This document shows, piece by piece, positions 50,614 through 53,214 of a stretch of DNA of 64,000 bases. The stretch's first letter is position 1. Each line of letters opens with the position of its first letter. This stretch comes from Puia sp. (lineage in GTDB: Bacteria > Bacteroidota > Bacteroidia > Chitinophagales > Chitinophagaceae). The notes below the pieces were generated by a model. That model searched no databases and was not told the DNA's origin. It saw only the letters and a program-made list of their open reading frames with translations. The stretch lies in the NCBI GenBank assembly GCA_035501395.1, contig DATJWK010000020.1:3851-67850 (forward strand). The letters are read 5' to 3'. Made by a program: the position numbers and the translations under genes.

Positions 50614-50681
50614 ACCGTAAATCTAACGAAAATCGTTCCAATTTATTGAGTAGCTTATATTTGCGTACTCAATTGATTGAC

Positions 50682-51317
50682 ATGAAAATATACATTGGGC
50701 TCATGATGGTTGTTTTTTTTGGGTTTAGGGCCGGGGCGCAAATGACGATTCGCCAGATGAAAGACGAATTGGAAAAGTCGCCGAACCCGATCCTGTATGC
50801 AAAGGAAGTGCTCAAAAAACGCTTTAAGATCGACACGATCACGATTAGCCAAACCGCGCATTTTGGCGGCCTGGCAGATAGTCTGGCGTATCGCGGAAAG
50901 GAGAGAAAGGTTTATGGGCCTTATGGTCCGAAGGATGGCCGGTTCCTCGTCCAGGTGCTGAGTAAAGCGCCCAATACCTTCTATCACATCAGTCAGATCT
51001 TTATCGACACGTCGGTCTTTAGCTACCGGATCGCCGACTCCATCGGGAATGTCATCCTGAAAAAGTTGAAGGATGGGACGGCGACCTTTGAGGATATGGC
51101 GAGGACCTATGCGATCGGCCGCGATGCCGCGTCCGGCGGAGATGTGGGATGGGTGGCGCGGGGCGCAATGTTCCCGGTAGTGGAGCATGAGATCGCCACG
51201 CACAAAAAAGGGGAGGCTTTCAAGCTGTGGACGAGGGCAGGGCTGAATATTATGCGAAAGGATGACGACGCCCGGCAGGACGCGGGGTTTGCGCTGATGA
51301 TGCAGGTTTTTTTGTAG
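50682..51317 (+). CDS. Parvulin-like peptidyl-prolyl isomerase domain protein
   Basis: TFEDMARTYA..SGGDVGWV...M pattern; signal peptide. Confidence 0.7.
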   Translation: MKIYIGLMMVVFFGFRAGAQMTIRQMKDELEKSPNPILYAKEVLKKRFKIDTITISQTAHFGGLADSLAYRGKERKVYGPYGPKDGRFLVQVLSKAPNTFYHISQIFIDTSVFSYRIADSIGNVILKKLKDGTATFEDMARTYAIGRDAASGGDVGWVARGAMFPVVEHEIATHKKGEAFKLWTRAGLNIMRKDDDARQDAGFALMMQVFL

Positions 51318-51330
51318 GATGACCTGCGTT

Positions 51331-52044
51331 CTATTTCATCAGCAGTTTGACCGCCAGTCCGGTGAAAATGGCGATGCCTATACTCAGCAAGGTCCCGATC
51401 ACCAGGTATTCCGTTTTTATTTCCTGCCGGTCTTTTTCGCTAAACCGGATGATACCCTTTGCGGTGACGAGCAGACCGATCGCGGAATACTGGCCCTGCA
51501 GGACGAGTACCAGGACGATAATCCGTTCGGCGATCCCGATCCATTTACCCGCATTGACAAGGCTGTTCTCCGGATCATCGATCCTTCTGCTCCATTGTCT
51601 GGTTAGTTCGCCGATAAGAATACCCGCGGGAGCCGTTACAAAAACAAAACCTGCCGTTATCAGCCAGGCATTGCTGTCGGTATCCAGCCGCCGGCGCAAA
51701 TCATCCCAAATTCCGGGGTACCGGAATGTCAGGAACCAGCAGACGCCGATAACGCCGAGGTGTAGCAGCTGATCGATCAGGAAATAACGGATCGTGCGGG
51801 GCCGGTAGGATTTCCAGACGTCGATAAAAAAGTGCGTGACGAGAATAGTGAGGGCAACCGCCCAATAACGCCAGCCGATGAAGATGTAAGCCAGCCCGGC
51901 GGTCAGAAGCGCATGCACGTAGAGTTTTGGGGAAGCAAAATGCTTCCTGCAACGCTCGTCGACCCATGCTGCAGGCTGCAGGATAAAGTCGGTCAGCAGA
52001 TGGGACAGGATCAGCCTGATCAGCCATATGGTTCCGGGTATCAT
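51331..52044 (-). CDS. DUF3307-family multi-pass membrane protein
   Basis: HLLTDFILQP, LYVH, THFFID, IDQLLH; C-terminal GKWIGIAER, AKGIIRF, EYLVIGTLLS; ATGA overlap with the upstream gene. Confidence 0.85.
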   Translation of the reverse strand: MIPGTIWLIRLILSHLLTDFILQPAAWVDERCRKHFASPKLYVHALLTAGLAYIFIGWRYWAVALTILVTHFFIDVWKSYRPRTIRYFLIDQLLHLGVIGVCWFLTFRYPGIWDDLRRRLDTDSNAWLITAGFVFVTAPAGILIGELTRQWSRRIDDPENSLVNAGKWIGIAERIIVLVLVLQGQYSAIGLLVTAKGIIRFSEKDRQEIKTEYLVIGTLLSIGIAIFTGLAVKLLMK

Positions 52045-52682
52045 GATAGTAGTTCGGTCATTTTCGTGTATTGCTGAAGTATCCTTTCGATCGCCGGCCA
52101 CCTTCCGGCATTTGCCAGCTCGGATATGGTGCTCTTGGCTTTCTCGAGCGACAGCGCCAGTTGCTGCTGCGTCACTCCCTTTAACAGGTTTGCGATGACA
52201 TCGGCCTGCTTCGCGGTCATTTCCTGGAAAATGCTGTCGAGATAGTCCGCCATGGTCTGAAACCCGATATCCGCCATTTGGTTGCCGCTGACGATGGAAA
52301 GACGGCGTTCCGTTGCCTGCAGCTTGTCCAGTTCCCTGCCGGATAGCACAAAGGCCTCGCCCTTTGCAGATCCTGGTGCATGAACAGGCGCGGTTACCTC
52401 GCCGATTCCGATGGCGATCCGGATATCCCCCCGGGCCGCTCCGTCTTCCCTGGTGGTTATTTCGATTGCCACGGCCCTGCAGGCCAGCGCCAGCTGCAGC
52501 GCTTTTGAAGGCTCTTTTACATACGCCTGAAAACTGTCACCGCGGTAGAATTCGTGCGGATGCTCCTGCAGAAGCCCGGCCAGCACTTCCAGCAGCCTGG
52601 CTTCCTGCGGCGGAGACAGGCTGGTTGAATTTACAATATCGCCGGTCAGGACGGCGCCGGGGATTCCCTTCGGTCTGCTCAT
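52041..52682 (-). CDS. SatD-family protein (class III cyclase-like core plus C-terminal HTH)
   Basis: LTGDIVNST, YRGDSFQ, IRIAIGIG, GEAFVLSGR; HTH TQQQLALSLEKAKSTISE. Confidence 0.8.
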   Translation of the reverse strand: MSRPKGIPGAVLTGDIVNSTSLSPPQEARLLEVLAGLLQEHPHEFYRGDSFQAYVKEPSKALQLALACRAVAIEITTREDGAARGDIRIAIGIGEVTAPVHAPGSAKGEAFVLSGRELDKLQATERRLSIVSGNQMADIGFQTMADYLDSIFQEMTAKQADVIANLLKGVTQQQLALSLEKAKSTISELANAGRWPAIERILQQYTKMTELLS

Positions 52683-52688
52683 AGCTCT

Positions 52689-52794
52689 GTTCGGTTGTTT
52701 CACCGAATTTGGTCAAAGTTCGGTATTTTTACCGAATATTGCAAGAGTTCGCCAATTTTACCGAATTTTTATACAGTTCGCCATTTTTACCGAA
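52689..52794. repeat. Four 19-bp palindromic direct repeats, 29-bp period, 10-bp variable spacers
   Basis: GTTCGGTTGTTTCACCGAA (52689), GTTCGGTATTTTTACCGAA (52718), GTTCGCCAATTTTACCGAA (52747), GTTCGCCATTTTTACCGAA (52776). Confidence 0.95.
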
Positions 52795-53214
52795 CTAGTC
52801 GCCGATAAAGAACCGAAGCGCCAGTTCGTATCCTTTCAGGCCCAGGCCGGCGATCGTACCCTTTGCCTTCGCCGATACATACGAGAGGCGGCGGAATTCT
52901 TCCCGCGCGTTGACATTGCTGATGTGAACTTCGATAACCGGCGCTTTGATGGCCGCAATGGCATCGCCGATCGCAACGGAAGTATGGGTATAGCCACCGG
53001 GGTTCAGGAGAATACCGTCCGAGGAAAATCCGACGCGCTGCAGCTCATCGATCAGTTCGCCTTCGACGTTACTCTGGAAATAACTAAAGGTGATCGAGGC
53101 GTATTTCCTGACAAGCTCCGCATAGTATTGCTCGAAGGTCTGGCTGCCATATACTTCAGGTTCCCGCGTACCCAGCAGGTTCAGATTCGGACCGTTGATG
53201 ATGGCAATACGCAT
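52795..53214 (-). CDS. aroQ: Type II 3-dehydroquinate dehydratase
   Basis: INGPNLNLLGTREPEVYG, QSNVEG, NPGGYTHTS, EVHISN. Confidence 0.97.
   Translation of the reverse strand: MRIAIINGPNLNLLGTREPEVYGSQTFEQYYAELVRKYASITFSYFQSNVEGELIDELQRVGFSSDGILLNPGGYTHTSVAIGDAIAAIKAPVIEVHISNVNAREEFRRLSYVSAKAKGTIAGLGLKGYELALRFFIGD

Follow-up and report, generated by a model that had tools for sequence, protein, structure and literature searches.

A predicted cyclase-like protein of the SatD superfamily, its putative operator array and its DUF3307 partner in a Puia genome

Is a protein that carries motifs of class III nucleotide cyclases in front of a helix-turn-helix (HTH) an enzyme that makes a nucleotide signal, or is it a transcription factor that may sense one? 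This question is raised by a gene annotated as satD-like in a 64,000-nucleotide stretch of a Puia sp. genome (Chitinophagaceae; assembly GCA_035501395.1, contig DATJWK010000020.1, positions 3,851 to 67,850), which in its full length is called the window here. A first-pass annotation of the sequence had proposed either an active cyclase or nucleotidyltransferase of unusual specificity, or a nucleotide-sensing one-component transcription factor. We analysed the gene together with the DNA upstream of it and the membrane-protein gene that it overlaps, and the reading that we favour, as probable from sequence comparison and structure prediction, is that the satD product is a self-regulating one-component regulator with a Mg-nucleotide-binding cyclase-like domain.

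52041..52682, minus strand: SatD-superfamily gene, 213 amino acids (aa), cyclase-like domain plus putative HTH; assigned from its open reading frame (ORF), homologues, AlphaFold2 (AF2) model and PF16264-matching relatives.

The ORF had been placed correctly: positions 52041-52682 of the minus strand, stop codon counted in, hold a reading frame of 213 aa from an ATG, with MSRPKG as the N-terminus. A GTG start at 52703, seven residues further upstream, is unlikely, since the homologues of the protein (554, almost all of about 212 aa) do not have the additional residues. The name SatD-like could be upheld through distant relatives scoring above the PF16264 cut-off, although not through a direct Pfam SatD match. 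Direct Pfam and NCBIfam scans of the window protein returned weak HTH matches only and found neither SatD nor cyclase nor GGDEF; the Pfam SatD model (PF16264) matched neither the protein nor any of its 40 close homologues, and all six frames of the genome, searched with this model, gave nothing at E<=10. A profile built from the 40 homologues (A1) retrieved 2,229 cluster representatives at E<=0.001. These comprised distant proteins such as P0182, P0268 and P0260, found over their full length with E values of 1e-31 to 1e-37, which score 59, 49.5 and 45.7 bits on PF16264, where the cut-off is 29 bits; the distant relatives sampled at this level (E ~1e-31 to 1e-37, full length) scored 30.6-59.1 bits on the same model. 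The motifs ITGDIVxS, (F/Y)RGDSFQ, DxRIxIGIG and AFxxSGxxLD are common to the window protein and the PF16264-matching relatives. Because of this full-length homology and these common motifs, the window protein belongs, by sequence, to a branch of the SatD superfamily that has diverged in Chitinophagaceae.

The family takes its name from satD of the Streptococcus mutans sat operon, and the window protein resembles the family in length, in its set of motifs, in the predicted C-terminal HTH, in the overlapping downstream gene for a DUF3307 protein (PF11750) and in a palindrome array of 28-29-bp period upstream. It differs in that its clade is missed by the Pfam model, in having Arg after the Ser-Gly pair where canonical SatD has Lys, Pro or Gln, and in its operator half-site, TTCGG. 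Pfam may already group SatD with the nucleotide cyclases in a clan. In some SatD proteins (P0210, P0213) a long TPR extension follows at the C-terminus (420 and 577 aa).

52290..52667, minus strand: cyclase/GGDEF-like palm domain, residues 6-131; assigned from AF2, Foldseek, BFVD and hhalign.

The annotation had tied its proposal to a cyclase- or palm-like fold and to conservation of two Asp residues across the family. Such a fold is predicted by AF2 on the A1 alignment (pLDDT 93.3, pTM 0.91), with the elements β1 (6-16), α1 (24-38), β2 (43-46), β3 (50-55), α2 (58-77), β4 (87-97), a helix (109-122) and a strand (128-131), followed by five helices; the predicted topology is thus a beta-alpha-beta-beta-alpha-beta palm and then a helical HTH region. 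When the model was compared with the PDB using Foldseek, all of the top 50 matches were class III adenylyl or guanylyl cyclases or GGDEF domains (E 3e-5 to 1e-3, probability 0.99-1.0), with 10-20% sequence identity to the matched cyclases, and in BFVD, which holds predicted viral structures, the best fold matches were likewise guanylate-cyclase and GGDEF proteins. A sequence search of the PDB with the single protein found nothing useful, whereas the A1 profile, run with HMMER against PDB sequences, reached the cyclase 3mr7 (E=0.07) in the register that the annotation had assumed. An hhalign comparison of 128 family members with 14 class III cyclase domains taken from the relatives' genomes gave a probability of 94.6% and E=7e-8 over residues 7-98. 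In this register D15 falls on the Asp of F-T-D, D49 on the Asp of G-D and R88 on the Arg of RIGxH, an Arg that contacts the triphosphate in mammalian adenylyl cyclase. The front half of the protein is therefore cyclase-like at the level of predicted fold and profile. In the genome (G000) no PF00211 (E<=1e-5) or PF00990 domain was detectable, and the SatD-like protein would stand alone there as a protein with a cyclase fold; a GGDEF domain is present in one of 31 genomes sampled from the order.

52638..52640, minus strand: codon of D15, equivalent of the first metal-binding Asp, in T-G-D-I-V-N-S-T; assigned from alignment and conservation.
52536..52538, minus strand: codon of D49, equivalent of the second metal-binding Asp, in the Y-R-G-D-S-F-Q hairpin; assigned from alignment and conservation.
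52419..52427, minus strand: codons of D86-I-R88 at the start of β4; assigned from the hhalign and HMMER register and from conservation.
52326..52361, minus strand: GEAFVLSGRELD helix, residues 108-119, with the SatD-specific F-x-x-S-G-x-x-x-D signature; assigned from conservation.

Conservation was scored over 128 representatives clustered at 50% identity, with bona fide SatD proteins among them, and both Asp residues, D15 and D49, are kept in 98%. The four strings on which the cyclase proposal had been built are all present, namely GDIVNST (14-20), RGDS (47-50), IRIAIGIG (87-94) and GEAFVLSGRELD (108-119), and three of them resemble the cyclase motifs to which they had been likened more closely than by chance: hhalign and HMMER align D15 of GDIVNST as the first metal Asp and D49 of RGDS as the second, and place R88 of IRIAIGIG, likened to RIGIHxG, on the RIGxH Arg. 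Around these residues T13 (95%) and S19 (94%) are conserved in the N-terminal motif, R47 (98%), G48 (96%), S50 (91%) and Q52 (95%) in the hairpin, and D86 (95%), R88 (91%), G92 (91%) and G94 (95%) at β4. The fourth string fared differently. It had been read as the GDxVNxAxRLE motif with the Arg kept and the Asn replaced by Val, and this was not borne out, as the string lies outside the confident alignment, which ends at about residue 98, and the Arg, R116, is conserved in 73% only. Canonical SatD proteins have Lys, Pro or Gln at position 116, next to the invariant S114 (100%) and G115 (99%), with D119 at 93%, and V112, which the earlier register put at the Asn position, is Val, Arg, Ile or Gln across the family. 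Greedy extension of the hhalign alignment towards the Asn/Arg helix laid the Ser-Gly helix on a different cyclase segment, in a conflicting register of low confidence, and was not used.

Set against class III cyclases (PF00211; Rv1900c, 1ybu; Ma1120, 4wp9; OaPAC, 4yut; 3mr7), the predicted domain thus has the palm fold, the first Asp at the end of β1 followed by a phosphate-binding loop, the second Asp in the β2-β3 hairpin, and the Arg at the start of β4 in a RIGxxG-like strand. It departs from them in its size of about 130 aa, in its fusion to a predicted HTH and in what it has lost. No Guanylate_cyc (PF00211) match was found at E<1 for the window protein and the 40 homologues. The position that specifies the purine through Lys or Glu, four before the second Asp, is F45 here and Phe, Ile, Val or Leu across the family; the loop between β4 and the following helix has 11 residues (98-108) against about 20 in the cyclase alignment, so that the dimerisation arm is absent; the transition-state Asn is missing, and its proposed Arg partner on the helix varies within the family. 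Without a purine-specifying residue and a dimerisation arm, the window protein is not a canonical cyclase. From sequence and model the domain appears to be a minimal palm, in which the metal/triphosphate site is kept and the rest of the class III catalytic apparatus is gone, and since the Asp/Asp/Arg constellation is retained, binding of a Mg-nucleoside triphosphate (Mg-NTP) is a reasonable inference.

GGDEF domains (PF00990; 6eib, 4zmm) are similar in fold to a comparable or, per target length, slightly better degree (TMt 0.55-0.58), and they have in common with the window domain the short ending of β4, loop, helix and strand, and a hairpin that the RGDSF of the window protein resembles (GGDEF/GGEEF). 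The signature itself is different, R-G-D-S-F and not G-G-(D/E)-E-F, and no PF00990 match was obtained for the window protein and the 40 homologues. A GGDEF profile made of two sequences gave 5% probability in hhalign, a profile too thin to be informative.

52047..52214, minus strand: putative C-terminal HTH region, residues 157-212, with the recognition-helix motif K-S-K-S-T-I-S; assigned from domain matches and AF2 helices.

An HTH of sigma-r4/XRE type had been expected behind the cyclase motifs. The helical region is there in the AF2 model (157-167, 172-178, 183-192 and 195-212), and matches to HTH_3, Sigma70_r4 and HTH_23 occur in 22-30 of the 40 close homologues (HTH_3 in 30, with E values down to 7.5e-6; Sigma70_r4 in 22), but the window protein itself matches weakly, reaching 19.8 bits on HTH_3, under the cut-off of 23.

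52690-52707, 52719-52736, 52748-52765 and 52777-52794, no strand: candidate operator array of four 18-bp palindromes, TTCGG-N8-(C/G)CGAA, found by repeat search.
52795-53214, minus strand: aroQ, type II dehydroquinase, upstream of satD on the same strand.

What such an HTH might bind is suggested by the DNA in front of the gene. The palindromes recur with a period of exactly 29 bp and their array fills the 112-nt gap between aroQ and satD (52683-52794); in a pattern search of the whole genome (5.39 Mb) the only cluster was the one at satD, the other matches being isolated and GC-rich. A near-copy of operator O1 at C107:18169 lies inside a long ORF and was taken as chance. In 80 related loci of Chitinophagaceae, the 220 nt in front of the gene contain TTCG-N10-CGAA at a density of 11.3 per kb, as against 0.02 per kb in the remaining parts of these loci. 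Of the 80 loci, 76 have at least one such site, and of 126 pairs of adjacent sites 110 are spaced by 29 nt.

The period extends beyond these relatives. In ten more distant SatD loci (canonical Pfam SatD of other Bacteroidota, of metagenomic contigs, and of Vibrio and Salinivibrio plasmids) the strongest upstream period was 28 or 29 in every case, and in seven of them it beat all 300 shuffles, with half-sites that are unrelated to one another: TTATAG, TATGAT, TATC, TTAGCC, TTAAGGCT and TATCAG. A constant period with a drifting half-site indicates, as far as sequence can tell, a constraint set by protein geometry, and spacing that is conserved while the half-sites change would imply contacts between neighbouring DNA-bound dimers. 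As 29 bp correspond to about 2.76 helical turns, the dimers would presumably spiral around the DNA and come back into phase at every fourth site (116 bp, about 11 turns). The proposal of a one-component transcription factor gains strong support from these sequence patterns, that is, from a 29-bp array that is found here and in related loci of several lineages and that is the only cluster of its kind in the genome.

The array also appears to be in register with a promoter element. A box resembling the Bacteroidota -7 element, TAnnTTT(G/A), stands in the register of the array in 47 of the 62 loci that have one, its first base lying 4 nt inside the last palindrome or else 33 nt (29+4) beyond it. 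A box in this register is the arrangement expected for promoter occlusion, with which the sequences would fit.

51331..52044, minus strand: DUF3307 polytopic membrane protein, 237 aa; PF11750, E=9e-24.

The gene that such an operator array would control together with satD is constant. The two overlap in an ATGA at 52041-52044, where the satD stop codon overlaps the ATG of the DUF3307 gene, and DUF3307 lies directly downstream of satD in 79 of the 80 loci, the exception being a contig end. Among 81 high-quality genomes of the family (about one per genus) the SatD-like gene is found in 21 and DUF3307 in 20; in all 20 it adjoins the SatD-like gene, and it never occurs alone. Since, moreover, one genome of the same genus has neither gene, the two form an accessory, single-copy and inseparable cassette. 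The pairing holds at a distance: wherever the contigs of the sampled distant loci were long enough, a DUF3307 or DUF3307-like gene follows, mostly with overlapping stop and start codons, and one of these partners matches DUF3307 weakly (E=0.033). At one distant locus (L120, 851-3245) a TPR-fused SatD gene is divergent from DUF3307, with a 29-bp array in the shared intergenic region.

Of the two proteins the membrane partner is the more conserved at the closest locus (87% identity for DUF3307 vs 70% for the regulator). Its predicted helices contain the invariant residues H15, D19, Q23, H35, H71, D75, D91, Q92 and H95, and its C-terminal segment is charged and conserved (K196, R200, K204-D205-R206, T211-E212-Y213). 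The DUF3307 model (pLDDT 86.9, pTM 0.64) has no fold match in the PDB, the best E value being 0.45, and the protein may be a metal-dependent membrane enzyme.

Put together, these observations can be accommodated by the one-component regulator that we consider probable. The HTH would bind the four palindromes as dimers, neighbouring dimers would touch and so fix the period, and occupancy of the array would cover the promoter and control, most likely repress, the satD-DUF3307 operon. The cyclase-like domain most likely binds a Mg-nucleotide, as ligand or as slow substrate, because the Asp pair, the third Asp and the triphosphate Arg are kept while the base-specifying residue, the Asn/Arg pair and the arm are gone; it may thus sense nucleotide state or act as a slow enzyme, and binding would change the occupancy of the operators. 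The regulated product would be the obligate partner of the protein, the DUF3307 membrane protein with its intramembrane His/Asp cluster.

Several points weigh against this reading. The aroQ-satD spacer of the window has no recognisable TAnnTTTG box by pattern search and inspection, and the promoter position was not found there; transcription of the cassette may run on from carA-aroQ or start at a non-consensus promoter (TAAAATTG, within the third palindrome), and the palindromes, if transcribed, might conceivably work as hairpins in the RNA. Half-site position 5 (G vs T) co-varies with the recognition helix (E/Q-L vs Q-H), but this tracks phylogeny, has many exceptions, is only suggestive and was rejected as evidence. 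Strict conservation of three Asp residues and an Arg is what one would look for in an enzyme sooner than in a protein that only senses a ligand, so that catalysis may occur, and it is from sequence and models that we infer that SatD binds DNA and a nucleotide, and in which direction it regulates.

The array begins directly after the aroQ stop codon, which leaves no room for a terminator.

How much of the case could be turned towards an enzyme? SatD might be an active cyclase or nucleotidyltransferase whose signal acts on DUF3307, in a signalling or abortive-infection module like Pycsar or CBASS, with the HTH setting expression only or activating the enzyme on DNA. We regard this as unlikely, for all that the near-invariant acidic and basic active-site constellation, the predicted cyclase fold and the obligate, translationally coupled pair of an enzyme-like and a membrane protein would suit it. 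The cassette does resemble Pycsar and CBASS in being a two-gene operon of a cyclase-fold and a polytopic membrane protein with a patchy distribution (21 of the 81 genus-level genomes), one instance of which lies within a type I restriction-modification locus, between hsdS and hsdR, and another on a conjugative Vibrio plasmid beside transposases (an Rpn nuclease gene and an IS4 transposase gene adjoin it); the charged segment of DUF3307 could, besides, be a ligand site. The resemblance is offset by the lack of canonical catalytic residues in a regulator that has a predicted HTH and its own candidate operators: the base-specifying Lys/Glu is Phe or Ile, the Asn is missing, canonical SatD does not conserve the Arg, there is no arm, and the Guanylate_cyc and GGDEF models do not match. 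DUF3307 has no cyclic-nucleotide-binding domain, nor any other known nucleotide-binding domain by domain scan and fold search. PADLOC matched neither cassette protein, no homologue was found in phage genomes, and most of the sampled neighbourhoods are not defence islands but consist of ordinary chromosomal genes, unrelated among loci. We know of no defence cyclase that has an HTH with its own operator array, which also counts against this explanation.

The same losses could mean that the cyclase-like domain is a dead scaffold, which oligomerises the dimers on the array or binds a ligand other than a nucleotide, its motifs being a relic of the fold. The canonical specificity and transition-state residues are indeed gone, and a period fixed at 28-29 bp across phyla demands dimer-dimer contacts that the domain could supply. 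There is also a precedent: in regulators of the PucR/CdaR type a degenerate GGDEF-like domain precedes a C-terminal HTH, and they are transcription factors whose domain order, cyclase superfamily first and HTH second, is that predicted for the window protein. To our knowledge these are larger, multi-domain proteins with no metal-Asp pair and no periodic operator array, and neither GGDEF_2 nor HTH_30 matched the window protein and the 40 homologues at E<1. We consider a dead scaffold very unlikely, given that relic domains usually lose their metal ligands and D15, D49, D86 and R88 are here conserved at 91-98%. That the likeness to cyclases arose by chance, from short motifs in some unrelated fold, is hardly credible: the direct Pfam searches for Guanylate_cyc, GGDEF and SatD were negative and identity to cyclases is low, but the model has high confidence and the correct topology, its 50 best PDB matches all fall in one superfamily, and the hhalign result is joined by an independent HMMER match to 3mr7 in the same register.

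A bolder version of the regulator can be drawn, which we think quite unlikely as a whole. In a cassette that spans phyla, SatD dimers would polymerise on the array through their cyclase-like domains, sites would form between dimers, and Mg-NTP binding, or conversion to a new product, would be templated by the array. This would gate how far a potentially toxic His/Asp membrane enzyme is expressed, and possibly how active it is. Such a mechanism, if true, would add a new class to the nucleotide-dependent genetic switches or to the addiction/defence modules.

The surroundings of the cassette vary. In the window a carA-like gene also lies upstream of satD on the same strand, and the convergent downstream neighbour (50646-51317, plus strand) encodes a PpiC-type peptidyl-prolyl isomerase (PPIase; Rotamase, E=4.6e-9); a ppiC gene near the cassette of the Salinivibrio plasmid (L121) is probably a coincidence. 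In Puia-like genomes (L001-L017) the cassette stands on either side of a PPIase-like gene, homologous to that at 50646-51317, relative to aroQ, and this variable placement indicates local rearrangement or independent insertion near carA-aroQ. Elsewhere, the cassette within the restriction-modification operon (L116, 1-5681) is a canonical SatD-DUF3307 pair with a 29-bp array, which follows a 58-aa ORF, and a gene of the 2H phosphoesterase family (LigT / 2',5' RNA ligase) is divergent beside another cassette (L124, 5135-5686), a single case that could be coincidence.

Nowhere in the searchable literature did we find a cyclase fold, DNA binding or periodic operators ascribed to SatD, nor a mechanism for SatD and DUF3307, the record consisting of the label 'acid tolerance' and one essentiality call by transposon sequencing (Tn-seq). 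In that study, of S. pyogenes, satD was missing from 29% of the genomes and was scored essential wherever present (PMC11323703). A gene that is accessory yet essential would fit a repressor whose loss frees a harmful membrane protein, on the analogy of the cassette described here and presuming that the streptococcal gene has a DUF3307 neighbour, and repression of its own operon by SatD could thus account for the paradoxical Tn-seq result.

SatD and DUF3307 are both catalogued in databases, with thousands of members in Bacteroidota and Proteobacteria and, judging by the source of the family name, in Firmicutes, and both are uncharacterised. New here is the periodic palindrome array in front of SatD genes, found in Chitinophagaceae, in other Bacteroidota and on Vibrionaceae plasmids. 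A predicted cyclase fold that retains its metal site, a conserved candidate operator array of 29-bp period and an inseparable membrane partner turn this anonymous pair into a testable system, with D15, D49, D86, R88 and S114-G115 as the residues to mutate, together with the DNA sites. Taken together, the cyclase-fold regulator, the candidate operator array and the constant membrane partner suggest that SatD represses its own operon in response to a nucleotide and so keeps a membrane protein in check that may be harmful.

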